From contig CAZMQI010000002.1 of assembly GCA_964568585.1 (NCBI GenBank), positions 9,237 through 73,236 on the forward strand: 64,000 nt of DNA, given 5' to 3'. How positions within the stretch are numbered: position 1 is the first letter of the stretch; every line of letters starts with the position of its first letter. Shown here one piece after another: positions 16,161 through 58,580 of this stretch. The notes beneath the pieces were generated by a model that saw only the letters and a list, made by a program, of their open reading frames with translations, was not told the origin of the DNA and searched no databases. Both the position numbers and the translations under genes were made by a program. The stretch comes from an uncultured Rhodospirillales bacterium. GTDB taxonomy: Bacteria; Pseudomonadota; Alphaproteobacteria; UBA9219; RGZA01.

Positions 16161-16165
16161 AAGGG

Positions 16166-16798: not shown

Positions 16799-16801
16799 GG
16801 T

Positions 16802-19238: not shown

Positions 19239-19239
19239 A

Positions 19240-19653: not shown

Positions 19654-19669
19654 ATCTCTCTCCTAAAGT

Positions 19670-20400: not shown

Positions 20401-20409
20401 GATAAACCT

Positions 20410-21063
20410 TTAATAACGTAAACGTTGAATGCGGAATGGCTGATACATTGCTTGTACAATCTCGGGCAATGATTTGACCGATAATGCGTCACCGTTGATA
20501 CGCAAGCCTTCACCACGATGTTCGTAAAGCTGTGCGACATGCGCGAGCATGCCTTGCTTTAATGCTTGCGGCACAGTGCTGGCCGCACCATAACCCGCCG
20601 TAAAATCAATGCTGATGCCGTTGCTCATTCGTTGCGGCGTTGGCCATGATGCGCTATTTCGCAATGCCAATCGTCCAGGCTCTGCGGCATTATCTACAAA
20701 ATACAGCGTGGGCGAAAAAACTGTGCTGCTATCGTCATCGGCATAAACCGTAACCGCACTGATGCTTTGTAATGGCGCACGCGGAAGGGTAATGAAGCGC
20801 TTCACGGTGAGCTTTGAAGCTGCACCTTGGTGCATACCATCCCACCACGACATGCTATCACCCGGAAATTCATCCAGCCATAACCGCCATCCCTGGGTAA
20901 TCAATGCACGCGTGGTGAACTCTTCGCAGATCATGCGCGTTGCGGTGATTAAATTCGTAATTAAACTATCGTCATCGTTGATGGTAACACGCAAATGCGC
21001 TTTTGCATCAGACAGGCTGATGGGTTCGCTCGCAGGAGGCGTTGTTCGGGTCAATGCTGTCAT
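20410..21063 (-). CDS. gp6-like head-tail connector protein (GTA g6-like)
   Basis: 217 aa. EPISLSDAKAHLRVTINDDDSLITNLITATRMICEEFTTRALITQGWRLWLD. Confidence 0.8.
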   Translation of the reverse strand: MTALTRTTPPASEPISLSDAKAHLRVTINDDDSLITNLITATRMICEEFTTRALITQGWRLWLDEFPGDSMSWWDGMHQGAASKLTVKRFITLPRAPLQSISAVTVYADDDSSTVFSPTLYFVDNAAEPGRLALRNSASWPTPQRMSNGISIDFTAGYGAASTVPQALKQGMLAHVAQLYEHRGEGLRINGDALSVKSLPEIVQAMYQPFRIQRLRY

Positions 21064-21080
21064 GTTAAACCTATAAAGAA

Positions 21081-21107
21081 GTAGGCGAGGATAAACGCCT
21101 CGCCTAC
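21081..21107 (-). terminator. Strong hairpin (candidate attenuator/terminator or RNA-stability element) between the capsid module and the connector genes
   Basis: On the minus strand: GTAGGCGAGG-CGTTTAT-CCTCGCCTAC (10-bp stem) followed by TTCTTTAT. It lies in the 53-nt gap between the 130-aa ORF and g6. Confidence 0.45.
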
Positions 21108-21116
21108 ATGCTCAAA

Positions 21117-21509
21117 TTAAACCGGATTAACCGCCGGATGACCGCGCAACACCACTGCATTCGCAGCAGCACCTGTCGTGGCACCTGCAACCGTCATCAC
21201 CGCGCGAATGTAACGATAGCCGCCCGTGTAACCGATTTTCTGAATGGTGTTGGAACCTGCACCACTTGAAACCGCAACGAATGCACCGTTAAGCGAATTC
21301 GTGTCACAGGTCACATAGGTGGAGTTGTCCTGGGAATGCTGCAACGATGGTGTATGCGACCCATCGGTCCATGTTCCGAAATTGAATATCACCATTGCCG
21401 AGTTATGCCCCTGCAAATCAACACCCGTGCCCATTGCCGTTGCATTACGCACCGCAGGCGCAATGCTTTGTACAACGCTGATTCTATTTTCGAGATCTTT
21501 TAAAGCCAT
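21117..21509 (-). CDS. Hypothetical 130-aa protein inserted between capsid and connector genes (possible capsid accessory/decoration protein)
   Basis: The ORF fills the gap after the capsid gene. It is rich in Gly/Thr/Ala/Ser and probably beta-rich, and it contains IGYTGGYRYIRAV. By my recollection, canonical RcGTA order has no gene at this position. Confidence 0.55.
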   Translation of the reverse strand: MALKDLENRISVVQSIAPAVRNATAMGTGVDLQGHNSAMVIFNFGTWTDGSHTPSLQHSQDNSTYVTCDTNSLNGAFVAVSSGAGSNTIQKIGYTGGYRYIRAVMTVAGATTGAAANAVVLRGHPAVNPV

Positions 21510-21536
21510 TTGATTGTCTCCTATTAATATAAATAA

Positions 21537-22766
21537 TTACGAAACTGAGAAGCGCAAGAATTTCAGCGCATCAAAGTTGGTAACGTCACCGCCCACACGT
21601 TTGGTGCAGCGGAACTTCACGAATGGCGCCGCCGTGAACGGATCACGCAAGATACGCATGCCGATACGGTCAACGATGGTGTAGGCTTCGGCAAAATTAC
21701 CAAAGGCTAGTGACAGGCTGTTGGTAGCAACGGACGGCATATCTTCACCAAGATAAACCGGGAAGCCGAGCAAGGTCGCTGGCGTGCCGATTTGCAAGCT
21801 TGGTTGCCACAAATAGCTATCATTGGTCGTGCCCTTCATCTTGCGGATAAGTTCGGACACCGCGCGCGGCATCAACCATGCAGCATTCGGCAAATAGCCA
21901 GACTTTAAACGATGCATCAGGCTGATAATCGCATCCGCGGGAGCAGAAGATGCGAATGCACCTGCTGCGCCGGATGGGAAATATTCAAATGTGCCCCATG
22001 GGCGTGACGTATCGGCAGTTGCTGCTACAGCATAGCTGGCGAAACCGCGCGGTTGTGCCACACCATCACCTACAACAAAAGCTGCATTCTCGCGGCGCGC
22101 AAAACGAGCAGCGATTTTGTTTACAATCCATTCTTCGACATTCAAATTCGCATCATCAAGAAGTTTTTGTGTTGCTTTTGGCTGTGCGTGCAGTTCATGG
22201 ACAGAAATACGAATGCGGCCAAATTGTCCAGGTTCGCTATCGGTACGTGTATCCAATTCGCTCATCCATAAGGCTTCGCTATCATCGGTATCGCGAAGCA
22301 TTTCAACTGCATCGGATGATACGGTCATCACGGTTGCCAATTGACGCATCGGGGTTGTATCGAATTGGCGGGTGATGATGCGTTCCGACATTTCGGATGG
22401 CACTAGATAACCACCGTCTGGGTCTGAAATCACGCTCATCGCTTTTGCTTCGATGCCGGATAAATCCTGCTCCGCACCCTTCGTCACATAACGCAGGAAT
22501 GCACGTTTATGTTCGGATGGTACTTCCGCAAATTCCTTACCCATATTTGGACGCTTCAATACTGTTTTGAAAGACGCAACAGCATCTTGCAGTTTGGTTA
22601 CATCGCTGTTGATGCGGTTTACTTTTTCTTCCAATACCACATCGCCGCGTTTGCGTTCGAGGGATGATAGGCGTTCGTCATTTGCGTCTTTAAAGGCTTC
22701 AAAGGCGTGGGCAAGTTCGCCCGTCGCCGCCTTGATTTCCATCAAGTCAGTCATGCGTTTCTCCAT
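21537..22766 (-). CDS. HK97-family major capsid protein (GTA g5-like)
   Basis: 409 aa. A coiled-coil delta-like N-terminus (ELAHAFEAFKDANDERLSSLE...) precedes the HK97-fold body (...LWQPSLQIGTPATLLGFPVYLGEDMP...). It follows the prohead protease. Confidence 0.92.
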   Translation of the reverse strand: MEKRMTDLMEIKAATGELAHAFEAFKDANDERLSSLERKRGDVVLEEKVNRINSDVTKLQDAVASFKTVLKRPNMGKEFAEVPSEHKRAFLRYVTKGAEQDLSGIEAKAMSVISDPDGGYLVPSEMSERIITRQFDTTPMRQLATVMTVSSDAVEMLRDTDDSEALWMSELDTRTDSEPGQFGRIRISVHELHAQPKATQKLLDDANLNVEEWIVNKIAARFARRENAAFVVGDGVAQPRGFASYAVAATADTSRPWGTFEYFPSGAAGAFASSAPADAIISLMHRLKSGYLPNAAWLMPRAVSELIRKMKGTTNDSYLWQPSLQIGTPATLLGFPVYLGEDMPSVATNSLSLAFGNFAEAYTIVDRIGMRILRDPFTAAPFVKFRCTKRVGGDVTNFDALKFLRFSVS

Positions 22767-22775
22767 ACGTTATGT

Positions 22776-23327
22776 TTATGTGTTTAGATAGCTGGCCGTG
22801 TTTCGTAAGCGCATAACGATGGCCTGAAACTCGTTATGGTTTAATTCGTTGTAGGTTGCCTCTTTTACCGTGTGCACGCGCGCCAGCCCATTGGCCGGGA
22901 ATGTGACGAGGGACACTTCATAAAGTTCAACCTCGGTCAGCGTGCGGATCTTCGTTTTGCTGTCTTTAATACTTTTGACAGCTGCATAGCCGATGGATAG
23001 GCCGGTGATTGCGCCGATTTTTAATAGCTCATACGCTTCCGCACCGTGTTGCGTTTTAATCGCCAACTTTCCTTCAACGCGAAGGCCGCGAGCATCCTCA
23101 CTCACATTTGTCCATACACCAATTGGTTCAGCTGTATCATGCATCCACAGCATGGCAGGGTTGGCTTTGCTTTGTTTATACTTGGCAAGACTGCGTTCAA
23201 ACGCGCCCTTTGCCACTACGTCGCTTTGCGCGTCAACTTCACCAAAGACGGATGCATAACCGGCAATCGAACCTTGCGTGCCGATTTCTTTAATATCAAA
23301 TGACGTGGTCATATATTTTGTTTGCAT
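22776..23327 (-). CDS. HK97-family prohead protease (GTA g4-like)
   Basis: ORF trimmed to the ATG at 23325-23327 (AAGGAAG RBS), 10 nt after the portal stop. GYASVFGEVDAQSDVVAKGAF...MLWMHD...GLSIGY...EVSLVTFPAN. Confidence 0.9.
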   Translation of the reverse strand: MQTKYMTTSFDIKEIGTQGSIAGYASVFGEVDAQSDVVAKGAFERSLAKYKQSKANPAMLWMHDTAEPIGVWTNVSEDARGLRVEGKLAIKTQHGAEAYELLKIGAITGLSIGYAAVKSIKDSKTKIRTLTEVELYEVSLVTFPANGLARVHTVKEATYNELNHNEFQAIVMRLRNTASYLNT

Positions 23328-23337
23328 AGTTCTTCCT

Positions 23338-24534
23338 TTATTCAGGCGGATAACCAACAGCTTGTCGCTTTTCATTGCGCGAAATAAAATCAGCCTTACC
23401 GATTTTATCCCATACCATGTCGCGCCGTGCGGCGAGTGCCGGAATTTCATCGGCATCAATATCAAGGCGCAAATTGTCATCGAACATTGGCGTCAGCCAA
23501 CGATTAAGTTCGCCTTTGAATTGCTGCACTAATGGCAACACAGTTTCTTCGTAGAGCGAAAGGCGTGCTTCGGCCATATTGGTATAGGTTTGCGATTCAG
23601 AGATGCTGATGAGCTGATCGGGCACGCCAAATGCCAGCGCGATATCTTGCGCGGCACGTTTACGTCCAGCAAGCCAATCCATATCCTTTGGCGTCAGCCC
23701 CATCTCCTTCCAGTCAAGCCCGCCTTCCAGAATTAACGGACGGCCAGCGTTGCGCGGGGTAAGATAATGTTCTTCCAATTCTTCTTTCAGGCGGCGGAAT
23801 TGCTCATCGCTCAATTGCGATGGGCCATCCTTGGGTGAATAAATAAGCGCGCCTGATGGCCGTGCAGCTTGATTCAGCAATGCCTGGTTCCATGCACTGG
23901 CGGCATTGTGTTGATCGATTGCAGTCATCGCCGCTTCCAGTGGCGCCATACCATACCAATCATCTAACGGATGAAACGCTTTCCAATGCAAAATGTTACT
24001 TGCGCCCGTGAATGGGTCAGCAGCCCAACGCACTGTGCGTCCGCCCACCTGATATTCATAGCCAAGCGGCAACCCGCTTTCGCCGGGTATCACGCGCATG
24101 CGGTCGGGACGAAGCACATATAATTCAACCGGTGCTGCGCCTTCATTCGGACGTATCGCTTCGATGTAGACATTGCCGGAAATCTGATAATAACTAAACA
24201 CGCTTTCCAGAAATTGCGCGGTGCCTTGTAACGGGTTGGGGTGTTTTAATAATTCTTTTAATGGATGATCTTCCAGCTCCTGATGTTCTTGATTATATAA
24301 CAGCCATGGAATGCTGGCGGATGCTCTGGCAACTTCCGAAATGCAACGCCATGCAATCACATTCTTACGATAGCCTTCTTCTGCCAACGCATCATAACGG
24401 CGCGGAGTCCAACGCGGTTTTCCCACGTGAGAATACGCGACCACAGGCCCGGAAGCCGACGTTTTATGTGAAATTGCTTCACGCATTTTTTCTTGCATTT
24501 TTGGTTTGCGCGTTAGAAATGCTGGCCAATCCAT
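23338..24534 (-). CDS. HK97-family portal protein (GTA g3-like)
   Basis: 398 aa. VFSYYQISGNVYIEAIR..., YGMAPLEAA and SESQTYTNMAEARLSLYEETVLP. It lies between the terminase and protease genes. Confidence 0.92.
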   Translation of the reverse strand: MDWPAFLTRKPKMQEKMREAISHKTSASGPVVAYSHVGKPRWTPRRYDALAEEGYRKNVIAWRCISEVARASASIPWLLYNQEHQELEDHPLKELLKHPNPLQGTAQFLESVFSYYQISGNVYIEAIRPNEGAAPVELYVLRPDRMRVIPGESGLPLGYEYQVGGRTVRWAADPFTGASNILHWKAFHPLDDWYGMAPLEAAMTAIDQHNAASAWNQALLNQAARPSGALIYSPKDGPSQLSDEQFRRLKEELEEHYLTPRNAGRPLILEGGLDWKEMGLTPKDMDWLAGRKRAAQDIALAFGVPDQLISISESQTYTNMAEARLSLYEETVLPLVQQFKGELNRWLTPMFDDNLRLDIDADEIPALAARRDMVWDKIGKADFISRNEKRQAVGYPPE

Positions 24535-24550
24535 ATTCGCTTCCTTTTTT

Positions 24551-25846
24551 TTAAAAATTCAAGTTTCTTACACGGGGCATGTGGTACGTTCCCTGCATCA
24601 ATTCAGTCATCGCCCAAACAAGCGCATCCACGCGGTCGGGTGAACCATCCTTCACGCCGTGGCTTGTGAATTGGCACATCTGGTCTTCCAATGCTTTATG
24701 CATACCCACATGATGCACAATGCCGCGTTCATATAATGCAGCCACCGGAAACGCACGCACCGCTTTGGCCTTGGTTGCCCGTACCGCTTTGAACACAACA
24801 TAGGGATCAGCAAGACGCAGCATACGCTCAATCAAATCGCCGCCTTCATTCACTTCGCCGATAATCAAATCTGCGCCCAATTCATCTCGCAGATTTATGG
24901 CGCGCCTTGCCCAAGCATCAGGCGTCATCTGCCCTGATGCATCGGCAAGTACGTAAAACTGTCCGTCATTACTTCGTGCGGCCGCCACCACACCTGTTTC
25001 ATCACTTTTGGCATGACTGGTAACCGCGGGATCGATTGCAATCACAATCCGCTCCAGATTATCAGGAATGTCTGCAACTCTTACTACATCCAATGCACTA
25101 TGTGACCACAGCGCGCCCTCCATATCTTCGACGATTTCGGCATCTAACTCCTGTCGTCCTAGCCGTGTACCGCCATACCGTTCACGTAAATCTGCCAAGA
25201 CTTGCGGCGCAATATTTCCTGCGTTCTCTTCACTGCGGCCTCTGGTTAAAAACAAATCCTTATGTGCGCGTTTTACTAAATCCTTGATGATGGCAATCGG
25301 CTTTGGCGTCGTGGTAATCACCAGTTGCGGATGCTTCCCTAAACGTAATCCCATCATCAATTGGTCAAATGCCGCTGGACTGCTCCATGCCGCCAATTCA
25401 TCAGCCCAAGCCCTGTGAAATTGTGGGCCACGCAGCCGTTCCGGCTCATCGGCAGAAAATAATTTAAATCTGCTGCCGTTCTTTAATATCAATTCCGAAA
25501 GAGAGCGGTTCCATCGCTCGATGCATTCCTGTGGTAACACACTTAACAATCCGCTAGGTCCTTCGACACAGGTATCCCGCGCATCTGCATGGGTTGGCGC
25601 AATCACCGCAATGCGTGCGTCGTCATTCCATAATCCGTAATAGGCGACATCCTCCGCTCCGGTCAGTGTTTTTCCCCAACCTCTGCCTGCCAGCACCATC
25701 CAGATGCGCCAGTTACCTCTGGGGGTTATCTGTTCCGGACGCGCCTTCAATAACCACTGTGCCCTGGCCATCCAGCTCTTGCGTTTTGCTTCCGGCCAAT
25801 GCATCCAGAACTTTTTTAGCAAGAGCGATGGCAGCATCAAGTTCAT
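24551..25846 (-). CDS. Terminase large subunit (GTA g2-like)
   Basis: [26 protein letters not shown] (Walker A), Walker B-like RIAVIAPT...AWADELAAW and a C-terminal nuclease domain ([10 protein letters not shown]...). The exact start is uncertain because the N-terminus overlaps the TerS-like ORF. Confidence 0.92.
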
Positions 25847-35343: not shown

Positions 35344-36981
35344 ATGGCAAATCCAACTTCCTTAAGATCGCGCGCACAGCAGCCCCGCCAGCAGCAACAG
35401 CAACAATATGTTCAAGAAGAACGCTTTCAAGAACAACAGTGGGACGAACATCAGCAAGATGAAAATTTTGATGTCGCGCTGCATCTGGCCAGCCACGCAC
35501 AACGCTTGAAGAATGTAGATTCATCTCTCACCTACTTCGAACAATCCTTGAAAAATTTCCAAGCAGTGTATGTTCAGGAACGTAATCGCCAAAATAAATA
35601 TCTCGCCATCCTTGGTGGCTGCATCGCCATCACTGTACTTGCGGTTGCGTTCTGGCCACGTGGCGGCACCACGAATTCCGCTGCGCCGATTCAATCCGCA
35701 CAACAACGCATACAACAACAAATGGCTGCGCCACTGGCGCCGGTAGCGATGCCGCAAGCTCAACAAACCTATGCGCCAAACTTTGCAGCAGCGCCACAAG
35801 TGCAGCAGCAAATGCCACAAATCCAAGCGCCTACCATGCGCGCTCCCGCGAACGTTGTTGCACTTGGCGCACGCTACGACCAACAAACCCAGCGTAATAC
35901 TCAAGCATATCTTGCAGCGCCCGCACAGCCTGTCTATCAACAGCCAGTTCCCGTTCAACCACGCCTGAGCCCGTTCCAGATTACCGTACAAAATAAATTA
36001 GCTGCTAAAGGCGAAGCAGTGCCTGCTGATTGGCAACCCTTATTCAACCGCGAAGCAAGCGGCGATAAAAAAGGCAAGCTTCTGGTTGCTGCAAAATTCC
36101 TTAAAGGTGAAGGCGTGCAACGCGACCAAGCTTTTGCCGTTGAGATGATCCGCCAAGCAGCAGATGCGGGCGAAAAAGAAGCGATGATGTGGCTCGCTTA
36201 CGCGAACCAAGGCGGCAACATCGGTAAAACCGATATCAATGCAGCTATCCGTTGGTTCCAGGCAGCAGGTAAGGCGGGCGTCAATCAAGCCTACACCGAA
36301 CTTGGCCGCATTTATGAAACCGGAGCAGATGGCGCTCCCGATATTGAAACCGCACTTGCGTGGTATCAACGCGGTGCACAAGCAGGCGATGCCAAAGCTG
36401 CTGAAGCCATCAATCGCCTAACTGCTGGCCAACAAGCTGCACAACAACCTATTCAACAACCACAATATGCTGCGCCTGTTTACCAAGCACCAGCACCCAT
36501 AGCACCAATTGGCGCGTCACCCGCACAACAACTCCAGCAAATGATTCAGCCCGCAGGCGGGTTGGGTCAGGGCGCCCAGAATATTAATACGAATGCTCCG
36601 AACGATATTTTTGTTCCTGCACCTGCTCAGGCTGCACAAATTCAACAACCCATCACACCGGCGGTTGCCCAACAAATCGCAAATGAGATCGATAACTCCA
36701 TTGCCCCTGCCTATTCGGCAACGCCTGTGGTCGCTTCTGTGCCAACCCCTGCACCATCGACCCAAGTGGGCATGAGCAAGGAACAAGCCAGCGCAGATAA
36801 CAAAGCGATTCAACGTATGCTACGCGTCCTAGGTTACAAGGTTGACCGCGTGGACGGCGAATACGGCCCGCAAACAGCATCAGCCATTCGCGCTTACCAA
36901 CGTGATCATTCCGTATATCCGGACGGCGAACCATCCGCTGAGTTGATTGACTCGCTGATGCGCGATGTACGCGGTCAGTAA
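35344..36981 (+). CDS. Bitopic protein with a Gln/Pro-rich region, Sel1 repeats and a C-terminal PG_binding_1 domain (PodJ-like periplasmic architecture)
   Basis: TM helix YLAILGGCIAITVLAVAFW at about aa 86-105. Sel1-type repeats (AAKFLKGEGVQRD..., MMWLAYANQGG..., AIRWFQAAGKAG..., ALAWYQRGAQAGD). C-terminus IQRMLRVLGYKVDRVDGEYGPQTASAIRAYQ. Confidence 0.75.
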   Translation: MANPTSLRSRAQQPRQQQQQQYVQEERFQEQQWDEHQQDENFDVALHLASHAQRLKNVDSSLTYFEQSLKNFQAVYVQERNRQNKYLAILGGCIAITVLAVAFWPRGGTTNSAAPIQSAQQRIQQQMAAPLAPVAMPQAQQTYAPNFAAAPQVQQQMPQIQAPTMRAPANVVALGARYDQQTQRNTQAYLAAPAQPVYQQPVPVQPRLSPFQITVQNKLAAKGEAVPADWQPLFNREASGDKKGKLLVAAKFLKGEGVQRDQAFAVEMIRQAADAGEKEAMMWLAYANQGGNIGKTDINAAIRWFQAAGKAGVNQAYTELGRIYETGADGAPDIETALAWYQRGAQAGDAKAAEAINRLTAGQQAAQQPIQQPQYAAPVYQAPAPIAPIGASPAQQLQQMIQPAGGLGQGAQNINTNAPNDIFVPAPAQAAQIQQPITPAVAQQIANEIDNSIAPAYSATPVVASVPTPAPSTQVGMSKEQASADNKAIQRMLRVLGYKVDRVDGEYGPQTASAIRAYQRDHSVYPDGEPSAELIDSLMRDVRGQ

Positions 36982-40820: not shown

Positions 40821-42170
40821 TTACGCGCTGCCATTGCCATTACTTGGGCGTGCGGAGCGCCCATAAAATGGTACTACGTTTCGTAATTTTTCTATGCGAC
40901 TGGCAAAGTCGAGTACCTCGGGCATAACTTCCTGAAGGTGACGAGAGCCATTGAAAATACCATAATGACCAACCTTTGGCTGAGTATATTTCACTTTTCT
41001 GGCTTCAGGAATGTTGGAGCACAGCGCATGCGCGGCATGGGTTTGCCCAGCACCCGTAATATCATCTTTTTCACCTTCAATAGTCATCAAGGAGACATGG
41101 CGAATTTTAGTTAAATCAATCACGCGTTCTTGCGGTGTGCCTTCGCGGTACTTGAAGACACCGCGTGGCAAATGATGCTCAAAAAACACCTTCACATTTG
41201 TTTGCCATACATACCGTGCGGTAGGGTCCATGACCGCTTCATATTCATCATAGAACGCGCGGTGTTTCTCGGCGCTATCGCCATCCCCCCTGACCAGATT
41301 CATAAAGTGATCATGATCGGCCTTCATATGCTTATCAATATTCGGAAATTTGAATGCATTTAACATGGCATAGCCCGGGGCAACCAAGCGTCCAAAACCC
41401 GGATAACGGGATGGCACATAATCAAATAATTTTCGTAATGTGTTTAACCCATATTTTAAAGCGTTGGTGTTTACAGGCGTTGGATTAATGCGCGTATCAA
41501 TAGGCCCGCCACGCAACGTCACACTCATGGGAACATGAGGATCGTTATCTGCTTCCATCATAGCAATCGCGGCCATCACAGGTACAGATGGCTGGCACAC
41601 CGCATCGACATGCACATTGCCCTTAAAACTACGAAATACATCGACCATATAATCAATATAGTCATCCAGATCAAAATCCTCTGCGCCCGCAGCAACCGGA
41701 ACATCCCGTGGATTATGCCAATCGGTGATATAAATATTTTCATGCGGCAGAAAGGCTTCAACTGTACCACGCAGCAAGGTTGCATAATGTCCCGACATTG
41801 GCGCAACAAAGAGTCGATTGGAATCTGGGGCGCGGCCTTGGGGCAAATCACGATCAAAATGCAATAAATCCATAAACGGCTTAGTCATTACAACTTTCTC
41901 GCGTACCGCAACTTCTTGCCCATCCACAACAGTAATAGGCAAGTTGAATTCGGGGCGAGCATAACGGCGAGTTTTGCGTTCAAATGTTTCACACGCCGCC
42001 CCCACCCAGCGAGCCATGTTGGTGGTAGCCACCAAAACTGCGTCAGTGGCAAACCCAAGGGGTGTAAATTGTAAAGGATTTGCCGGGTGGTGAAGAATAC
42101 TGCTTGCGAACTTGACACTAGCCTCGGTCATGTGTGCGCCAGCCGAGCCCGCAATCGCTCCTGCGCGCAT
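40821..42170 (-). CDS. phaZ: Intracellular polyhydroxyalkanoate depolymerase
   Basis: NPLQFTPLG...ACETFERKTRRYARPEFNL...VDGQEVAVREKVV..PF..LLHF and PMSGHYATLLR, the pattern of the PhaZ TIGR01849 family as I recall it. Confidence 0.8.
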   Translation of the reverse strand: MRAGAIAGSAGAHMTEASVKFASSILHHPANPLQFTPLGFATDAVLVATTNMARWVGAACETFERKTRRYARPEFNLPITVVDGQEVAVREKVVMTKPFMDLLHFDRDLPQGRAPDSNRLFVAPMSGHYATLLRGTVEAFLPHENIYITDWHNPRDVPVAAGAEDFDLDDYIDYMVDVFRSFKGNVHVDAVCQPSVPVMAAIAMMEADNDPHVPMSVTLRGGPIDTRINPTPVNTNALKYGLNTLRKLFDYVPSRYPGFGRLVAPGYAMLNAFKFPNIDKHMKADHDHFMNLVRGDGDSAEKHRAFYDEYEAVMDPTARYVWQTNVKVFFEHHLPRGVFKYREGTPQERVIDLTKIRHVSLMTIEGEKDDITGAGQTHAAHALCSNIPEARKVKYTQPKVGHYGIFNGSRHLQEVMPEVLDFASRIEKLRNVVPFYGRSARPSNGNGSA

Positions 42171-45402: not shown

Positions 45403-45431
45403 AAAAAAATCCCCGCCAAACTACGGCGGGG
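45403..45431 (-). terminator. Rho-independent terminator closing the minus-strand Pro/Ala-rich operon (possibly bidirectional)
   Basis: On the minus strand: CCCCGCC-GTAGTTT-GGCGGGG followed by ATTTTTTT. It lies between the convergent DsbA-family gene and ORF 45457-46128. Confidence 0.65.
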
Positions 45432-45456
45432 ATAATTCTTTACAATGATGCTTGTA

Positions 45457-46128
45457 TTAAGCGCCCATCGTCGGTGCTGGTGCACGTGGCGCCGTTGCTG
45501 GTGCCGCTGCTGGCGCCGCTTGGCTAACCCGCAAAACACCCTGTGCGTCAGGCTGTGATAATGCTGGAACCAGACCCGTGTCTTGTGCTGCTGCCAACAC
45601 ACCATCCAATCTGGCTTTAACGTCAGCAGGTGGTGTAACAGGGTCACCTTGTGCAACATAGGAATTAGCCTGCGGGCTCCATACAGCTTTGTGATATACG
45701 GCGCCATCAATAGATGCAGGCACTGGTGGAGGGCCGGCTTCTGCTGGTGTAACACCGGGTATGCTTGCTTTCTTATCCGCGCCTACTTCAAGACCAACAC
45801 GGGCTAAATATGCTTGGCCGTCGGGCCCTTGACGAACCGCCTGTGCAAACACACTGCTGCTATCAAATGGGGGGTTATTTAAAGTTGCCCCATTTTCTGT
45901 ACGTGTATTGGGTGATACCTGAAAGGTAATGCGTTCGCCTGGCTTTGTACGACCAAAACGGTCAGGTGTACCTGCTGCTGCTGCAACAGAAACAATCCCT
46001 CTGTTCGATGCCAGATCCAGATTTCCAGTTCCCGGTAAGACAGCATCTGCAAAATTTTCTGCAGGTGTTTTACGTCCAGTTACGCGTGTTCTATGTTCGC
46101 CTGGTTGTGATCCGTGTGTAACTCCCAT
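45457..46128 (-). CDS. Hypothetical Pro/Ala-rich protein A (third gene of the C-B-A operon)
   Basis: AGAGGAG RBS. N-terminus MGVTHGSQPGEHRTRVTGRK, then NFADAVLPG. Ala/Pro tail. No signal peptide and no recognised domain. Confidence 0.6.
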   Translation of the reverse strand: MGVTHGSQPGEHRTRVTGRKTPAENFADAVLPGTGNLDLASNRGIVSVAAAAGTPDRFGRTKPGERITFQVSPNTRTENGATLNNPPFDSSSVFAQAVRQGPDGQAYLARVGLEVGADKKASIPGVTPAEAGPPPVPASIDGAVYHKAVWSPQANSYVAQGDPVTPPADVKARLDGVLAAAQDTGLVPALSQPDAQGVLRVSQAAPAAAPATAPRAPAPTMGA

Positions 46129-46216: not shown

Positions 46217-46576
46217 TCATGTAATAACTGGCCCTCCTCTAGCGGTGATTTGCGCTGGGCTTGGCGCCGCACTTTGAACTTCTGGAAGATCAAAATCAGT
46301 CAAATTTCTCATCGCTAATGGGCCCGCAGCAACCGATGCTACCTGCACAGGTGCAGCAGCTGGAGCTGCAGCGGGTGCCGCAACGGGCGGTGTTGCCCTA
46401 GCAGGAGCAACTCCCGCAATCTGCTGTACCGAAGGTGGTCTGTTGCCGGGTACAACACCTTCTGCAACGTCAAATCTGGTTAAATCAACAGGCGCATGCT
46501 GTGGCAATCGTGCGGGAAGCGCAGGAGGTGTAAGCTCCTCTCTATGTCTTCCTCTACCTTTCCTATTATTTCCCAT
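46217..46576 (-). CDS. Hypothetical Pro/Ala-rich protein B
   Basis: ORF trimmed to the ATG at 46574-46576 behind AAGGAAGGA. N-terminus MGNNRKGRGRHRE. Two copies of the DFD motif: DLTRFDVAE (46460-46486) and NLTDFDLPE (46280-46306). Confidence 0.55.
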   Translation of the reverse strand: MGNNRKGRGRHREELTPPALPARLPQHAPVDLTRFDVAEGVVPGNRPPSVQQIAGVAPARATPPVAAPAAAPAAAPVQVASVAAGPLAMRNLTDFDLPEVQSAAPSPAQITARGGPVIT

Positions 46577-46600
46577 GTGCTTTCCTTCCTTTTGCAATCT

Positions 46601-47218
46601 TTACATTCGTGGTGGCGCTGCAACTGCAGGAGCCGCCGGTGCTGGAGCCACGCCAGCTATCGCAGCTGGTGATGGCGCTACCGCAGGCGCTGCTTCTGGA
46701 ACATCAAAGTCTGCAATATTACCACTAATTGGCGCAGGTAATGGTCCAGCTGGCGGCCCCTCTGGCGCTGCTGGTGCTGCCGGTGGCGCAGCTGCTACTG
46801 GTGCGGCTGGATCTGGCGCTGGACCAGTTCGTGGCTGGAATCCATTTGGGCTTTCCCGCAATCCATCAACACCTGTCTGCAGTTCATTGAATGCTTGTGC
46901 ATTGGCTGGATTATTACGGAATTCTTGGCCAGCTGGCGTTTCAAGGCCAGCGGCAATACGTTGCATTCTCTCAAGACGGCTTTCATTTGGGAAAGCTGGA
47001 TCTGGTCGGAATGCTTTATCCATTAATTCGCGAACGCCATTTGTAGCAGGCCCCGCTTTTCCATCAACACACAACTGGCGTGCATTCGGACCATATAATT
47101 TTTGCAACAGCTTGTTCATCGCTTCTTGTTCAGCTCTAACGGCTGGATCAGCCGCAGCTGCTGGACGCGCGCGGCGAGGAGAATGTCTCGGTAAATTATT
47201 TCTGCGATGACGACCCAT
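46601..47218 (-). CDS. Hypothetical protein C with a PG_binding_1-like segment and a Pro/Ala-rich tail
   Basis: AAGGAAG RBS. N-terminus MGRHRRNNLPRHSPRRARP. LCVDGKAGPATNGVRELM resembles the DG.xGxxT core of peptidoglycan-binding domain 1. NIADFDVPEAAPAVAPSPA at 46694-46720 onward. Confidence 0.6.
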   Translation of the reverse strand: MGRHRRNNLPRHSPRRARPAAAADPAVRAEQEAMNKLLQKLYGPNARQLCVDGKAGPATNGVRELMDKAFRPDPAFPNESRLERMQRIAAGLETPAGQEFRNNPANAQAFNELQTGVDGLRESPNGFQPRTGPAPDPAAPVAAAPPAAPAAPEGPPAGPLPAPISGNIADFDVPEAAPAVAPSPAAIAGVAPAPAAPAVAAPPRM

Positions 47219-47519: not shown

Positions 47520-48638
47520 TCAGTTGGAAATGCGGTGAATCTGCAACGGCGGATGCGATGCGGGTAGATCAACGCGCGATGCGGGTGGTTGTTGAGCAGA
47601 TAGAGTGTTGATGCGCCAATTTGTTGTTGGCGGACTGTATCCTTGAACGGCACCTGCATGCACAGGATATGGTGCAGGTTGCACGGGACGCTGTGCTTGA
47701 TACATCGGTTGCTGCGCGGACATATGTGGTTGAACTGCTGATCTTGGTTGTGGAGGTTGATTTATTCCCAGCAAACTTCCAACCCCATGTGCAATTCCAC
47801 CGGCCACAGTAGCAATTGTATTGCCTACACCCTTTACAAAGCGACCCAATGCACCAAGCAGGCTCTGGTCATAGTTTTCCTTGGCGGCATATTGATACGT
47901 ATTGTGGCTTGGCGCCAATTGTATGCCAAATTCGGCTAATCCTCTACGCAGTGATGGCCATTGCGAGCGATAGCCTTCCTCGGATATGGCAAAATCGGCA
48001 ACGCTCTCACGTCGCACGCTGCCGTCTGCCAACGCAGTGCGTAGTTCATTGATCTCACTCTGCACAGGATTCTTCAAAAGCATTTGCACATGCGGCGGCA
48101 ACTCACCACGGTCTTTCGCGGCTTGGAATTGTCTTAAAAACCTAATCGTCTGACCTTGAGGAATATTATCGGCTTCAAAAAATGTCACGCCGCAATTTTT
48201 TGCAAAGTGCCGCACCTGATCATGGAATGAACGTTCCCATCCACCATTCATCCACTGCGATTCCGTCATACCATATCTGCGTTTAGCAGCTTCTTTTCTT
48301 GCCAGTTCGCCTGCTTCATATCTACTACCGGTTGGGCCCGTGCGGCCTTCACTATATACACCCACATGGCGGACGCCACGTTGGCGTATATAATCCAGCA
48401 TTTGTCCTGCTTGGCTACGCATATCTGTGGTGCCACCCACATCCACCATGACTGCAATATTGGTTCCGTGCTGGCGTATCGCTTCGTCAATTTCGGAACG
48501 CGATAAGGTGCGGGCGCCAACTGTGTTACTTATGTTTGATGCAAAGAGCAAACGACGCGGCGGCGTATATATAGGCGCAGGCGTTCCTTGCACCTGCGGC
48601 GGGCTATATGGGTATGATGCGTTGGGCTGTACGGCCAT
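47520..48638 (-). CDS. Leaderless protein D: putative TIM-barrel glycosidase-like domain + glycine zipper + Pro/Gln spacer + tail motifs
   Basis: 372 aa. IAVMVDVGG...VGVYSEG...WMNGGWERSF...GVTFFEADNI (weak GH114-like pattern by eye). LGALGRFVKGVGNTIATVAGGIAHGVGSLLG. WRINT at 47604-47618. The terminal PLQIHRISN* has its motif at 47532-47546. Confidence 0.65.
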   Translation of the reverse strand: MAVQPNASYPYSPPQVQGTPAPIYTPPRRLLFASNISNTVGARTLSRSEIDEAIRQHGTNIAVMVDVGGTTDMRSQAGQMLDYIRQRGVRHVGVYSEGRTGPTGSRYEAGELARKEAAKRRYGMTESQWMNGGWERSFHDQVRHFAKNCGVTFFEADNIPQGQTIRFLRQFQAAKDRGELPPHVQMLLKNPVQSEINELRTALADGSVRRESVADFAISEEGYRSQWPSLRRGLAEFGIQLAPSHNTYQYAAKENYDQSLLGALGRFVKGVGNTIATVAGGIAHGVGSLLGINQPPQPRSAVQPHMSAQQPMYQAQRPVQPAPYPVHAGAVQGYSPPTTNWRINTLSAQQPPASRVDLPASHPPLQIHRISN

Positions 48639-48736
48639 TCCAGCTCGCTAAAAATACATAAAATATATCTCGTATTTTATCTAATCTAGGTTAGTAAGCG
48701 ATGAAGGAACGTGGTTAATTTAATAAAACAAATAAC

Positions 48737-49201
48737 TTATTGGCTTTCTTTATCTTCCCAATCGGTCGGGGGACCCATCACTTTGATGGCGGTGCCGAAC
48801 AAATGGGTTTCGTAAACCGGCACATCGGCATAGTTACGGCGCTGGGTTGTGTAGCGCACAATCTGGTATTGCGCGTGAATAACGGCATCCGCGCCCGTTG
48901 AAAATGCCAGTTCCTGCATCATGCGTGTCGCTTGCTGGGATGATGCGGTTGGGTCATAAGGCTGGCCGGGCTCGGCTGTATAATGGGAGAACACGCGCAA
49001 CGTATCCAGAATAGCGTAGCGGTATTTCACATCACCCGTGATAACTCTAATCGTTGCAATCTTGCGTTCGCGTTCTTCTTTGGCACGCGCTTGGGCATCT
49101 GATTGCTGTTGCTTGGCGCGGTCTTTGCGTTCTTGCTCTTCACGCAGCTTTGCGCGCTCTTCATTCGCTTTCTTCAGATTTTCTTTAATGGAATCAAACA
49201 T
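48737..49201 (-). CDS. Hypothetical protein: Lys/Glu/Arg-rich coiled-coil N-terminus + possible YbjQ (UPF0145)-like domain
   Basis: 154 aa. ...AFSTGADAVIHAQYQI...THLFGTAIKV resembles the YbjQ pattern A..GADAV......GTA.K by eye only. Confidence 0.5.
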   Translation of the reverse strand: MFDSIKENLKKANEERAKLREEQERKDRAKQQQSDAQARAKEERERKIATIRVITGDVKYRYAILDTLRVFSHYTAEPGQPYDPTASSQQATRMMQELAFSTGADAVIHAQYQIVRYTTQRRNYADVPVYETHLFGTAIKVMGPPTDWEDKESQ

Positions 49202-49324: not shown

Positions 49325-50179
49325 ATGCACCCGCTCTATCGCCACATTCAAAGTAACAATAACGTCGACTGGGCCGATTACACCCCGCTCCTAATTGCCG
49401 GCAAGGATCTTGGCCGTGTACATAAAACCGTAGCAGCAACGCTATGCGATGCCAAATTACTGGAACGTAAAAACGATGCCCTATACTTGGTTGGTGAAAA
49501 ACCAGATATAGATGGCCGCACCAAACAGCTGCACACCATACTCCACCACCTGATTGAAACAAAATTTGTTCCAAAGGAACGTTTCGAACTTTACAGCGTC
49601 GCCACATCCTTCAAAGACGAACCGGTTGCACTGGCCGACCGCGCGCTTATCCCGTTCCTTGGCTTTGTGGCTTATGGCGTACATTGCAATGGCTATGTCA
49701 AAAAGGACGGCGCATTTTCATTATGGGTTGGTAAACGCTCATCCGATAGAGGTACCGACCCCGGCAAGTTCGATCATATGATTGCAGGGGGCCAACCGCA
49801 TGGCCTAAGCGCGTTTGATAATCTGGCCAAAGAAGCGCATGAGGAAGCAGGCGTACCGGCAAAGCTTGTAGCACAAGCAAAGCCGGTTGGCTGCATCACC
49901 TATACACGTGCCCTGCCAAACAGCATCCGCCGTGATGCATTATTCCTGTTCGATTTAAAATGTCCGGAAGACTTCACACCGCATAATCAGGATGGCGAAG
50001 TAGAGGATTTCCGTTTAATGCCTGCTGCAGAAGTCCTGCATCTGATTGCCACCAGCGATGCGTTCAAATTCAACGTGAATTTAGTGCTGATTGATTTCTT
50101 TATCCGTCACGGGATCATTAAATGTGACGAGCCGGGATATTCCGAGCTATGCGCTGGGCTCCACGCACCACATATTTAA
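49325..50179 (+). CDS. NUDIX hydrolase with an N-terminal DUF4743-like domain
   Basis: Nudix box GGQPHGLSAFDNLAKEAHEEAGVP (G-x5-E-x7-REUxEExGU-like). 284 aa. Confidence 0.8.
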   Translation: MHPLYRHIQSNNNVDWADYTPLLIAGKDLGRVHKTVAATLCDAKLLERKNDALYLVGEKPDIDGRTKQLHTILHHLIETKFVPKERFELYSVATSFKDEPVALADRALIPFLGFVAYGVHCNGYVKKDGAFSLWVGKRSSDRGTDPGKFDHMIAGGQPHGLSAFDNLAKEAHEEAGVPAKLVAQAKPVGCITYTRALPNSIRRDALFLFDLKCPEDFTPHNQDGEVEDFRLMPAAEVLHLIATSDAFKFNVNLVLIDFFIRHGIIKCDEPGYSELCAGLHAPHI

Positions 50180-50990
50180 TCACATAGCGCGCGTTTTCAT
50201 ATGTCAAAGCCGATACAAACCGTGTCGCAGCTGTGCGCTGCGAATTCTGTGACAACAAGATGGATGTGCCATTTCGCAAACGCTCCGCTTCTTGTTCAAT
50301 GAACTGCGTTACGTCAATCATGCGCGGCACTTCGTATTTATACAGCAGATTCAAGTCTCCCTGAACATCCGCCAACCGCGGGCCTGCCTTGGCATAACGC
50401 ATCTTCAAGAAACTGAATTTGGCTGGTCTTGGCTCTACGAATTGATTCTGGGCAAAGTCATAAATCATCAAACGGTAAGGATTAGTGGTCGGGTCTTCAT
50501 AATAGACGACAAATTTCAAATGGTTCGATTTAACGCCCTTCATCACTTCAGGATATGTGAGGAAGTTATTCATATCAGCAAGCGTTTTGGCCGCCGATAA
50601 TAACCTCAGACTGTTTGTACGATCCAACCCCATGCGCTGCACATCCTGTGCAAGCCCAAGATATGGTGCATATAATGTACGCTCGTAACGTTCCGTGATT
50701 TGTTCTTTATCCGTCACCGCATCCCAGATATGCCTGACATCTAGACAATCATAATGGCCAGATTGCGCGGTAATCAATAGCCCGTCATCTTTTTTAGTAT
50801 GATTATAAAGCAGGAAGAATGATGCCATCACAACACTAAGCTTATCGCTTTCCAATGGCGGAGAAGCCGGAACCGATGCGCCAGCATTGGTTGCCAGAAA
50901 TTGCACGCCGCCATGCGTATTACGCGTATCAAGGCGTTTGTCCATACAACGGAAACACATGCAGGTAATAGCTTGCACTTTATAAGTCAT
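50118..50990 (-). CDS. Divergent beta-carbonic-anhydrase-like protein, paralogue 1
   Basis: CMCFRCMDKR (C-x-D-x-R), ATNAGAS and SGHYDC (G-H-x-x-C) occur in the order and spacing of beta-CA zinc-site motifs, followed by a ~110-aa C-terminal extension. The 3' end overlaps the convergent NUDIX gene by 62 nt. Confidence 0.55.
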   Translation of the reverse strand: MTYKVQAITCMCFRCMDKRLDTRNTHGGVQFLATNAGASVPASPPLESDKLSVVMASFFLLYNHTKKDDGLLITAQSGHYDCLDVRHIWDAVTDKEQITERYERTLYAPYLGLAQDVQRMGLDRTNSLRLLSAAKTLADMNNFLTYPEVMKGVKSNHLKFVVYYEDPTTNPYRLMIYDFAQNQFVEPRPAKFSFLKMRYAKAGPRLADVQGDLNLLYKYEVPRMIDVTQFIEQEAERLRNGTSILLSQNSQRTAATRFVSALTYENARYVIKYVVRGAQRIARNIPARHI

Positions 50991-51096: not shown

Positions 51097-51867
51097 TTAA
51101 CTACGTGCTAAGCGTGCGATATGCGCTGGTCCGGCGTCTTGTTCATCTTGGTCATCAACCATCGCCTTAATAGCCGTTTCATAAGTTTTAAGGGCACGGC
51201 GCTGCATATAAATGGCGGCTTTATCATCAACAAACGCCGCTACATTCACAGGGCCTCTTAACGCATATTGCTCAAGCAATTCAGGAGATTCCAAAAATTC
51301 TTTAAGGCGCGTGGTGGTTGGCACGAATACATTCTGCTGCGGATCAAAGATATGCAAACGATGTGGTTCAATGACCACATCTTCAAAATACGCAACGATG
51401 CTTAATTCGTTATCACGCACTTCGGCTTGAATGTCGTCGTATGCGAATGCGTGATTGATATCCTGTAATGTCTTTGCCTGCGTCAACAAACGCATGCGTT
51501 CGACATCATCGATACCCGGGTGGTTGCGAACTTGCTCTACCAGATTAGCATAGGGCGCGAGGCGGGCGGTGTCACGGTCACTGCGCTCGGCAACTGGCTT
51601 ATGCGCGACATTCCAGATGCTGCGTACTGCCACACAATCCTCATGGCCGGAGAATGCGGAAATGACGGTTTGATTGCCTTCTTTGGCACGTTCCAGAAGG
51701 ATATGCAGACTGTCTTCCTGCGTGCTTTGCTGCAATGCTGGCGGCGGGAACGACGCGCCTGCAGTCGACATTTTGAACACTTCCAAACCGTGGGTGGCAT
51801 TGGAATTAATGCGGCGGTCCATACAATGAATGCAGATACAAACGGAAGCTGGCTGTTTAACAGTCAT
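51097..51867 (-). CDS. Divergent beta-carbonic-anhydrase-like protein, paralogue 2
   Basis: CICIHCMDRR, STAGAS and SGHEDC in the same order. Collinear similarity to 50118-50990 throughout (e.g. LTQAKTLQDINHAF versus LSAAKTLADMNNFL, and HRLHIFDPQQNVFVP versus YRLMIYDFAQNQFVE). Confidence 0.55.
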   Translation of the reverse strand: MTVKQPASVCICIHCMDRRINSNATHGLEVFKMSTAGASFPPPALQQSTQEDSLHILLERAKEGNQTVISAFSGHEDCVAVRSIWNVAHKPVAERSDRDTARLAPYANLVEQVRNHPGIDDVERMRLLTQAKTLQDINHAFAYDDIQAEVRDNELSIVAYFEDVVIEPHRLHIFDPQQNVFVPTTTRLKEFLESPELLEQYALRGPVNVAAFVDDKAAIYMQRRALKTYETAIKAMVDDQDEQDAGPAHIARLARS

Positions 51868-57248: not shown

Positions 57249-58580
57249 TTACGCAGTGCCGCGCGGTGGCGATTGGGTATGAATGACAAATCGGTTTGTC
57301 GTTGCTGTAACTGTGGTCGGCGGCCCCGCAGCAGGCTGCACGCTGGCAATCAATGTACGTATCTGCTGTGTACCAGCCGCAGTCAAGTGCAGCCCGTCTG
57401 CATCTTTTTGTATTCCTCTATCCCGTGTCACAATGGGTTGGATAGGTGGCCTGTCAGGATGCGCTTGATTATGTTCCCGTATGGTTTCGGTAATGACATT
57501 CGCGACTCTGGCAAGGCCCGCATCGTTGTGAGCGCTGCCTTGATTATTACCGGGCAATACCCAGTTATTTATTCTCACGCCAGCGCGGTCTGCTGCCTGC
57601 AAAAATAACTGCACCTGACGCTTATTTTCTGCATCAGGATATGGACCGTTATTACTACCCAGCACGACATCCGCAACAGCGCCGGGTCTCAAATGGCGGA
57701 ACTGCGCTGCTGCCGCCCCAATACTCACACCGACCACAGCGACGTTTTGCTTATTGGGATATGCCCATTTCAAGCTTGCGCCAATGCTATCACCCATAAT
57801 CACATTGCTTTCAGCGCGGGGATGCTGCACGGAGTTATTGACCAAGCCATGCGTTGGCGGATGCGCAACCACAGGTCGTATATCCTGCCTGCCATCACGC
57901 GGCGGCCCACTGGGCGATGCGTAGGGTGGCGCGTAAGGTGGCGCTTGTTGTGGTGAACCTTCATTCTGGCGATTGATACGAAGACCTGTTGGCTGCGGGG
58001 GCGTTTGTTGCGGCAATGGCTCGGCGGGTCTAAATGCGTTGCCAATAGAATTACCGATAGTATTCATGACGGTGTTGAATCCGCGCCCAATGGCCGCGAA
58101 CGCATCTCTAAACCCTTGCATAAAACTATTGGTTGAAACCGTGCGCTGTCCATACGTTGAACCTGGAAGCGATGCCCATTCCTGACGACATTTATATGCG
58201 GCTTGCTGGATATTGCCATTAATCACATCATTAAGCGCGCCACGCTGTGCAATCAATGCCACGGCTGCTATGTCCTGTGTATGCGGCTTGAAATCATTGA
58301 ACCCATGGGCACGTGCGATACGGTCCCACGTATAGCTCATGAACTGATAGCGACCCGCTGCATTTGAACGCAGACTTGGATTAAGCTGCACCATAATGCG
58401 TGGATGGTCGACATACCCGTTGTTGAATTGGCCATGACCCACATTGATGTTATAACCACGGTCCCCTCGTCCATAGGTTCCTTCTGCCTTGGCAATCGCA
58501 TCCAGAAATGCGCGCACATTCTGGTTTTGCAATGCAGCTTCATATTGAGCGTATTGTGGTGAACGGGGAAAATTTGTCAT
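57249..58580 (-). CDS. Leaderless two-enzyme protein E1: lambda-R-type (GH104) lytic transglycosylase + SGNH/GDSL esterase, with glycine zipper and tail motifs
   Basis: aa ~20-155 are collinear with phage lambda R as I recall it (AFLDAIAKAEGT, HPRIMVQLNPSLRSNAAGRYQF, FKPHTQD, WASLPGSTYGQ). Glycine zipper FAAIGRGFNTVMNTIGNSIGNAF. LRINR at 57969-57983. SGNH blocks IMGDSIG, VVLGSNNG and DGLHLT. The C-terminus RFVIHTQSPPRGTA* has its motif at 57273-57290. Confidence 0.85.
   Translation of the reverse strand: MTNFPRSPQYAQYEAALQNQNVRAFLDAIAKAEGTYGRGDRGYNINVGHGQFNNGYVDHPRIMVQLNPSLRSNAAGRYQFMSYTWDRIARAHGFNDFKPHTQDIAAVALIAQRGALNDVINGNIQQAAYKCRQEWASLPGSTYGQRTVSTNSFMQGFRDAFAAIGRGFNTVMNTIGNSIGNAFRPAEPLPQQTPPQPTGLRINRQNEGSPQQAPPYAPPYASPSGPPRDGRQDIRPVVAHPPTHGLVNNSVQHPRAESNVIMGDSIGASLKWAYPNKQNVAVVGVSIGAAAAQFRHLRPGAVADVVLGSNNGPYPDAENKRQVQLFLQAADRAGVRINNWVLPGNNQGSAHNDAGLARVANVITETIREHNQAHPDRPPIQPIVTRDRGIQKDADGLHLTAAGTQQIRTLIASVQPAAGPPTTVTATTNRFVIHTQSPPRGTA

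Follow-up and report, generated by a model that had tools for sequence, protein, structure and literature searches.

Gene D lies on the minus strand of a 64,000-nucleotide stretch of DNA from an uncultured Rhodospirillales bacterium (the window). It encodes a leaderless protein in which a predicted triose-phosphate-isomerase (TIM) type barrel, of a family undescribed in the libraries searched, is joined to a disordered tail whose short motifs recur on four other leaderless proteins of the window. We favour, at a probability of roughly 45%, the reading that D is a leaderless modular cell-envelope hydrolase with a shared export or targeting tag, probably an antibacterial effector. Three groups of observations bear on this reading: the associations of the head family with cell-wall modules, the motifs common to the five tails, and the replacement of the gene as a cassette between close relatives. 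The gene and its parts are as follows.

47520 to 48638, minus strand: gene D, a 372-residue leaderless modular protein (stop codon at 47520 to 47522), from the list of open reading frames (ORFs) and its translation.

48564 to 48638, minus strand: residues 1 to 25, a disordered Pro-rich N-terminus (MAxxP...YxPP...PP) that is not a signal peptide (predicted local distance difference test score, pLDDT, of about 40; no hydrophobic stretch).

47868 to 48563, minus strand: residues 26 to 257, the head, a predicted (β/α)8-type barrel of an undescribed family (AlphaFold2 models, family search and conservation).

47769 to 47867, minus strand: residues 258 to 290, a predicted amphipathic helix rich in small residues, with the "glycine zipper" SLLGALGRFVKGVGNTIATVAGGIAHGVGSLLG (AlphaFold2; hydrophobic moment 1.8).

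47619 to 47768, minus strand: residues 291 to 340, a disordered, basic, Pro/Gln-rich linker with micro-motifs (xYxQ, HPVQ-like) common to the sibling tails (pLDDT about 30, composition and alignment).

47604 to 47618, minus strand: residues 341 to 345, motif 1, WRINT (WRINA, WRFNT, WNING and WIING in orthologues; LRINR and WVINR in siblings).

47523 to 47546, minus strand: residues 365 to 372, motif 2 and C-terminus, LQIHRISN, within the DNA block that is kept when the rest of the gene is swapped.

The window belongs to an alphaproteobacterial chromosome, with gyrB, SMC, a CcrM-type methylase, mutY, dciA, lepA, leuBCD and an RcGTA-like cluster. ORF D is a real gene, since orthologues of 55-75% identity hold the same chromosomal position in three other assemblies (L001, L002 and L003). 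In the window and in these assemblies the order of genes is a NUDIX gene, a 154-residue gene, D, three small Pro/Ala-rich ORFs, a dsbA-like gene, dciA and mutY. The one species-level genome with a relative of D is the metagenome-assembled genome "Alphaproteobacteria bacterium EBPR_ori4bin.18". As an earlier reading made from the sequence alone had stated, D has no leader: just three codons lie between its ATG and the stop before it, which excludes an overlooked signal peptide. A Tat signal was considered at "PPRRLLFAS" and rejected, as this segment is strand β1 of the barrel and is kept in relatives that have it a long way from their N-terminus. Residues P5, P14, P26 and P27 are invariant across the tail-bearing relatives. 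We also observed that a YxPP or PPVYxPP pattern is kept in D-type N-termini and that P0007, an orthologue from a JGI metagenome, carries a 120-residue N-terminal extension of PPVY/EPVYRPQ repeats, which are PPxY-like.

The head is predicted to be a TIM barrel not close to any solved structure. With eight orthologues as input, AlphaFold2 modelled the head alone as eight strands alternating with helices (pLDDT 87.5, predicted template-modelling score 0.85), and a second model of the full-length protein gave the head a pLDDT of about 90, the head scores spanning 87-92 over the models. The alternating β/α segments, and the TIM barrel, that the sequence-only reading had seen by eye are thus borne out, and all the peptide strings it quoted are found in the translation. 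Foldseek searches against the PDB (twice) and against BFVD returned only TIM barrels of many superfamilies, with E-values of about 1e-3 to 1e-2 and template-modelling (TM) scores of 0.2-0.48. Nothing useful was obtained when D was compared with Pfam, NCBIfam and PDB sequences; profiles of two family alignments gave only noise against PDB sequences, and 50 family members had no match in PHROGs and NCBIfam. By an exhaustive search of 1.84 billion cluster representatives with hidden Markov models (HMMs), the family comprises 133 proteins at E<=1e-3, 75 of them at E<=1e-10. It is rare: D had 8 word-index matches among 5.8 billion clusters, and a word-index search with the family profile recovered 21 members, all known already, and no GH114 protein. 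Translated searches with D and the family consensus (tblastn) gave no match in 50,697 phage records or 72,556 plasmids, and a scan of IMG/VR with a related sub-clade (A7) found no relative. On the libraries searched, the head family thus appears to be undescribed.

In an alignment of 50 domain sequences, Y95, G98, E155, D157, K189, N190 and E220 are invariant and G88, E111, W129, W134, N158, T247 and Y250 nearly so. The AlphaFold2 models place Y95, the E155-x-D157-N158 motif, K189-N190 and E220 at the ends of β3, β4, β5 and β6, respectively; in TIM-barrel enzymes such strand ends form the catalytic face.

To what substrate the head may be directed is suggested by the company that its relatives keep. 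Among 122 shorter family members examined with Pfam, PG_binding_1, PG_binding_3 and PG_binding_2 domains were found in 14, 11 and 3, respectively (up to 28 in total), and SH3_3 and DUF2272 in one member each. Many members are leaderless and consist of peptidoglycan-binding repeats followed by the catalytic domain, while others carry a signal peptide or two N-terminal transmembrane segments. In giant members of 1,100-1,800 residues the D-type domain stands beside Glucosaminidase, GH75 and Amidase_2 domains, or beside Peptidase_M15_4, and one of these giants has a weak match to pesticin-type lysozyme (E 2.6e-4, below the cut-off). One distant member lies 35 nucleotides downstream of an NlpC/P60 gene. 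Enzymes of glycoside hydrolase (GH) families GH114, GH135 and GH166 are typically associated with exopolysaccharide biosynthesis clusters; no polysaccharide-synthesis cluster was seen at the D locus or in the three distant-member contexts inspected. Because the family is fused to peptidoglycan-binding and lytic domains and none of these contexts is a polysaccharide-synthesis cluster, the head is more likely to be muralytic than biofilm-degrading, and the proposal of the sequence-only reading that the head is non-muralytic, with an exopolysaccharide- or biofilm-degrading activity, is not supported. Guilt by association of this kind makes peptidoglycan, or a glycan linked to it, the simplest candidate substrate.

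The tail (residues 258 to 372, 115 residues) contains 13.9% Pro, 11.3% Gln and a single acidic residue, with an isoelectric point (pI) of 11.4. In the full-length model, residues 1 to 22 and 271 to 372 are disordered (pLDDT about 30-40), and the sole helix predicted in the tail spans residues 258 to 278, with falling confidence. This helix had been described as the clearest glycine zipper of the set, a description that holds in part. A (G/A/S)xxx(G/A/S) pattern is clear in D (AGGIAHGVGSLLG) and in its closest orthologue, P0002, but P0003 to P0006 have in its place an amphipathic helix with Asp, Glu and Lys. Orthologues keep the LLGALGxF start and vary in the remainder; the maximum hydropathy over 19 residues (Kyte-Doolittle) is 1.45. 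What is conserved thus appears to be an amphipathic helix with many small residues and neither a hydrophobic zipper nor a transmembrane segment. A transmembrane anchor at this place was rejected, the helix being too polar in D and charged in orthologues. The Pro/Gln spacer, the WRINT motif and the terminal LQIHRISN, all noted before, are present in D. Identity among orthologues is 68-89% in the head and 23-40% in the linker; kept despite the divergence of the linker are W-x-[IF]-N, a second motif W-x-Phi-x and a PPRQRPA end. Two other roles for the tail were considered and set aside. Docking of the motifs on the barrel of the same molecule was rejected, as AlphaFold2 leaves them disordered, and so was a type I secretion signal, of which the general traits are Gly-rich repeats and an acidic C-terminus: D and its tail are strongly basic and have neither.

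Tails of this kind occur on five proteins of the window, D included. The other four are listed below.

158 to 826, plus strand: leaderless M23 peptidase ending ...AALRIHTQT (PF01551, E 5e-24; motif).

57249 to 58580, minus strand: head like phage lambda lysozyme (PDB 1am7/3d3d, E 1.5e-30), amphipathic helix, Pro/Gln linker, LRINR, an extra GDS-containing region and the end ...FVIHTQSPPRGTA.

58594 to 59433, minus strand: PF18013 phage-tail-lysozyme head (Pfam, E 6.3e-19) and a tail with LRINR and FTIHR; the orthologue P0148 keeps these motifs.

59602 to 60462, minus strand: unassigned head (no Pfam or PDB match), Gly-rich helix, WVINR, Pro/Gln linker and LTIRR (blastp with the tail of D, E 8e-7).

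The pattern [LW]xI[NH][RT], taken from D alone, matched all four of these proteins and none of the 53 other proteins of the window; outside the family it occurred three times in 62,944 residues of six-frame ORFs. A broader pattern occurred nine times in the five proteins and was absent from the 17,887 other residues, and shuffled tails contained it 0.07 times on average versus 8 observed. The siblings of D have the ends FTIHR.., LTIRR.., FVIHT.. and LRIHTQT. An alignment of 16 tails revealed further collinear micro-motifs, xYAQ and HPVQ, and both the helix and the motifs (GWVVxx, LWQFN, GWIVNG, LRINRIS and ITIRRQ) are retained in sibling orthologues from other genomes. The blastp match between the tails of D and of the 286-residue protein at 59602 to 60462 (E 8e-7) was obtained without composition correction, and a word-index search with the tail profile returned two sibling orthologues only. 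On these comparisons, the likeness of the tails consists of collinear short motifs and a common architecture and not of an alignable domain homology, and the motifs argue for a common tail much more strongly than the alignments do. Because the motif pattern is exclusive to the five leaderless proteins, is kept in sibling orthologues and comes with collinear micro-motifs, the interpretation of different cargo heads on one common tail, put forward by the sequence-only reading, stands. Two further observations were made on window proteins. In the lambda-lysozyme-like protein (57249 to 58580), a region of about 150 residues (residues ~265-420) is inserted between the tail motifs; it contains "VIMGDSIG", a motif reminiscent of SGNH/GDSL hydrolases, has no Pfam match and is conserved in L001 and L002. 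A 545-residue protein encoded at 35344 to 36981 on the plus strand, a further envelope protein of the window that is rich in Gln and Pro, begins with a Gln-rich stretch, has a single hydrophobic segment and Sel1 repeats, and carries PG_binding_1 at its C-terminus; it is without the tail motifs.

The D locus was then compared with that of the relative L008, which is closer to the window than L001 and L002 are. The flanking proteins are 86-97% identical whereas the protein at the D locus of L008, P0009, is only about 30% identical to D; P0009 is of the same fold family and ends HPPLQIHRIST. At the DNA level (blastn), 80% homology ends 14 nucleotides upstream of the start of D and resumes 58 nucleotides before its stop, so that the coding sequence has been swapped except for approximately the last 19 codons, which include the terminal motif. 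A second break in DNA homology takes out most of the three small ORFs downstream. These features are:

47578 to 48652, minus strand: replaceable cassette, without DNA homology to L008, both flanks being 80% identical (blastn).

46601 to 47218, 46217 to 46597 and 45457 to 46128, minus strand: three small leaderless Pro/Ala-rich ORFs downstream of D, with no Pfam match and hypervariable between relatives.

Counterparts of the small ORFs are found in L001 (11557 to 13207), L002 (11461 to 13385) and L008 (6872 to 8826) and are almost unalignable between close relatives. They contain short repeats specific to each genome: N[IL][AT]DFD[VL]PE (window), [VI]DPExx[LM]R (L008) and SLLxxP[VI]DVAR (L002). 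The first small ORF has a PG_binding_1-like "DGxxGPxT" module, some of them end in tail-like motifs (e.g. ...VTISRGRPTPT), and a strong bidirectional terminator follows them at 45409 to 45433. They may be co-functioning partners of D. The D locus shows a pattern of diversifying exchange, and the cassette swap strengthens the modular reading of D.

Other genes of the region were observed to differ from L008. A polyhydroxybutyrate depolymerase gene (PF06850) at 40821 to 42170, minus strand, shares 34% identity with its counterpart at 12013 to 13377 of L008, versus 95-97% for its neighbours, and is a second replaced gene of the region. Two paralogous proteins with Cys/His motifs (CxCxxCMDxR...SGHxDC) are encoded at 50118 to 50990 and 51097 to 51867, minus strand; one of them has a sub-threshold match to β-carbonic anhydrase (Pro_CA, E 1.9e-4), and relative to L008, conservation is 90% for one copy and 62% for the other. 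Directly upstream of D, the 154-residue gene (48737 to 49201, minus strand) encodes a charged coiled-coil N-terminus and a weak YbjQ-like domain (E 0.029). A role of this gene as an immunity protein was rejected as improbable, since it has no leader and is 91-96% conserved whatever the D allele.

These observations can be accommodated in the following mechanism. The head of D would probably be a glycosidase, with the invariant carboxylates at the C-terminal ends of β4 (E155-x-D157-N158) and β6 (E220) as its active site and peptidoglycan, or a peptidoglycan-linked glycan, as its most likely substrate. The tail, with no folded domain, consists of a predicted amphipathic helix and then a Pro/Gln-rich, acid-free disordered stretch that bears two short strand-like motifs, W/L-x-I-N-R/T and Phi-x-I-H/R-R/T, to which orthologues often add an Arg/Pro-rich end (PPRQRPA). 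We infer that such a tail would act as a Sec-independent export or targeting tag, whose strand-like motifs a partner protein would recognise, and that the five tail-bearing enzymes could form a lytic battery brought to a cell wall. Because of the cassette-like replacement of alleles and the hypervariable neighbours, this wall would most probably be that of other bacteria, in which case D would be an antibacterial effector.

Among known systems, the closest functional analogue of D appears to be the effector set (X-Tfe) of the Xanthomonadales-type type IV secretion system (T4SS), in which leaderless peptidoglycan hydrolases and other enzymes have varied N-terminal heads and a single C-terminal module, XVIPCD. 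The extreme C-termini of X-Tfe effectors carry an Arg-containing, acid-free signature, rich in Pro and small residues, on Gln-rich tails (PMC8740702). The tail of D is likewise Gln-rich (11%) with one acidic residue, and orthologues end PPRQRPA and siblings PPRQPT, PPRGTA or VTPRP, which is a resemblance only. Unlike in the Xanthomonadales, the host of D is an alphaproteobacterium, no immunity lipoprotein genes are adjacent and no T4SS genes were seen in the window. Modular endolysins of Gram-negative phages offer a second comparison: they are basic like D, and many distant relatives of the D head share their leaderless arrangement of PG_binding_1 and a catalytic domain. D, however, has a C-terminal disordered tail in place of a peptidoglycan-binding domain and no phage context, and the domain is absent from the phage collections searched. 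Bacteriocins of the colicin and pesticin type combine an enzymatic killing domain (the pesticin muramidase) with a disordered region whose short strand-forming boxes dock to import machinery. In these proteins, however, the disordered region is N-terminal and Gly/Ser-rich, the TonB/TolB box sequences are other, and an adjacent immunity gene is present; none of these features was seen for D. Finally, D resembles polymorphic toxin and effector cassettes, in which a conserved trafficking part is joined to a variable enzymatic part replaced by recombination at a fixed locus. It differs from them in that it varies on the N-terminal side and has its conserved anchor in the last ~19 codons, that the replacing allele is of the same fold, and that no immunity gene travels along.

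Several points weigh against the effector reading. No secretion-system genes were seen in the window, whose ORFs were examined by Pfam or by eye, not every one being scanned. No immunity-type gene with a signal peptide is adjacent to D, and the 154-residue gene upstream looks cytosolic and does not co-vary with D. D is without the folded alpha-alpha-beta-beta-beta part of XVIPCD (the pLDDT of its tail is about 30) and without sequence similarity to it, and it ends ...HRISN, without the Arg/Pro-rich end of its orthologues. The alignment of its tail to those of the siblings, called for by the sequence-only reading, held in part: an HMM of external D-type tails matched the 286-residue sibling (E 0.003, with high composition bias) but the tails of the 279- and 443-residue siblings were not significant. 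Regarding the chemistry, no enzymatic or structural homologue fixes it, as the Foldseek matches are generic TIM barrels that include non-glycosidases, and the fusions to peptidoglycan-binding domains tell where family members work, not which bond they cut. A more specific proposal, that the tail is the signal of an undescribed Sec-independent export route for a wall-degrading battery and that the head of D founds a new family of peptidoglycan glycoside hydrolases, is put forward as tentative.

The main rival for the role of D is programmed self-lysis, a reading that we consider rather improbable. D and its four companions would be the producer's own autolysins or endolysin-like enzymes, which would build up in the cytoplasm and reach its own wall in programmed lysis only, with a tail that serves for membrane association or holin-dependent release; a possible occasion would be the release of a gene transfer agent whose genes lie 25-35 kb from D. 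Holin-dependent endolysins are as a rule leaderless muralytic enzymes, a complete RcGTA-like head-tail cluster is present at 12.3-25.8 kb, two of the heads are of phage type (lambda lysozyme and PF18013), the tail has an amphipathic basic helix and immunity genes are lacking, all of which would suit such a role. By contrast, neither a holin nor a lysis cassette is adjacent, and the five genes lie dispersed between housekeeping genes. No D-type domain was found in the 50,697 phage genomes, in PHROGs or, by the scan with the related clade, in IMG/VR. The cassette replacement and the hypervariable neighbours are left unexplained by self-lysis, and five different hydrolases with conserved linear motifs exceed what lysis needs. 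The RcGTA-like cluster (12324 to 25846, minus strand) encodes terminase, portal, S78 protease, capsid, connector, tail tube and DUF2460 proteins, a hub protein (phiJL001 Gp84_N/BR0599), an NlpC/P60 protein and a 1137-residue protein with Phage-tail_3 and Rcc01698_C domains; only about 500 nucleotides (18715 to 19239) lie at the expected site of the tape-measure gene.

A second alternative concerns the chemistry of the head, which the sequence-only reading had compared by eye to GH114. The head would be an endo-alpha-1,4-galactosaminidase of the GH114/GH191/GH135/GH166 type, acting on a cationic exopolysaccharide like Pel or galactosaminogalactan (GAG), and the tail would deliver an anti-biofilm activity. 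These families share a modified barrel with a catalytic Asp/Glu pair, and GH114, GH191 and GH166 have in common a three-stranded insertion after β3, the two members of the catalytic pair being 58-69 residues apart in them; an acidic crevice for cationic substrates is present in five of the six solved galactosaminidase structures (PMC12054363). The head of D resembles Ega3, TM1410, Sph3 and the PelA hydrolase domain in its modified (β/α)8 barrel and in having acidic residues on the C-terminal face of the barrel. As candidate counterparts of the catalytic pair, the invariant D157 and E220, modelled at the ends of β4 and β6, are 63 residues apart, within the range above. GH114 (PF03537) is also the only Pfam family touched by a family consensus: it was the top match of one consensus (A4; E 1.4e-4, 21.6 bits versus a cut-off of 27), collinear over β2-β4 (consensus 36-134 versus profile 22-118), and 6 of the 122 members matched it weakly, at best with 2e-4. 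In BFVD, the best viral structural match is a Spherulin-4 (GH135-type) phage protein (probability 0.99, E 2.7e-3, TM 0.45).

These likenesses are set against several differences. The PF03537 match is below the gathering score of 27 bits and is unstable, falling to E 0.077 (12.7 bits) with a second family consensus; the clade of D gave none, and D itself had no match at E<=1. The structural check against GH114, PelA, Sph3 and Ega3 that had been proposed gave no significant superposition: no GH114, GH191 or GH166 structure (Ega3, TM1410, PelA-h) was among the top 50 Foldseek matches of the D model in the PDB, and Sph3 (5c5g) ranked 21st (E 0.028, TM 0.35). The insertion after β3, which carries a mobile Trp loop in GH114, GH191 and GH166, is absent; after β3 (residues 91 to 96) the model shows a low-confidence loop of about 12 residues and then helices at 109-122 and 126-149, and D has an extra long helix. 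Unlike the GH114-type galactosaminidases, the head is basic overall (pI 9.3), and unlike the enzymes of Pel and GAG clusters, members of its family occur as fusions with peptidoglycan-binding or lytic modules, and the contexts inspected were not polysaccharide-synthesis clusters. No relevant literature tying GH114 to peptidoglycan was found. A GH114-type head is therefore not established by these comparisons: the head may be a distant relation of GH114, but that it belongs there is not shown, and it lacks one of the shared structural features. As an account of the chemistry a biofilm hydrolase of this type is possible, and less likely than a muralytic enzyme.

That D is instead a housekeeping enzyme of wall remodelling, tethered by the motifs of its disordered tail to a scaffold or an envelope machine (part of the cytoskeleton or divisome, for instance), is unlikely. 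The gene does hold a stable chromosomal position among core genes, and motifs conserved within an otherwise divergent linker are typical of docking motifs. However, as D lacks both a leader and a transmembrane segment, its catalytic head would face the wrong compartment, and the swapping of alleles among close relatives and a family this rare (8 matches in 5.8 billion clusters) speak against a core function. Least probable of all, and very doubtful in our view, is a barrel that is a phosphodiesterase, lyase or aldolase-type enzyme with a tail in common for other reasons. The Foldseek matches are headed by endonuclease IV, MTHFR, sialic-acid aldolase and triose-phosphate isomerase, and no glycosidase family reaches significance, but these top matches (TM 0.2-0.45, root-mean-square deviation 6-14 Å) reflect the generic fold only, the fusion partners are cell-wall binding and lytic modules, and invariant carboxylates, Asn, Tyr and Trp are typical of carbohydrate-active sites.

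Taken together, these results favour D as a modular envelope hydrolase that probably acts on other bacteria. A common C-terminal module on leaderless, modular hydrolases of the wall is known already; the head family and the tail are undescribed in the libraries searched. If the enzyme is active, the barrel of D would represent a new family of carbohydrate-active enzymes, with a possible use as a lysin. One disordered motif tail on five leaderless hydrolases provides a testable delivery tag and a route to the machinery that would read it. Finally, the precise swap of a head of the same fold and about 30% identity, between a conserved 5' flank and the last motif, offers a clean natural case of modular evolution of lytic effectors.

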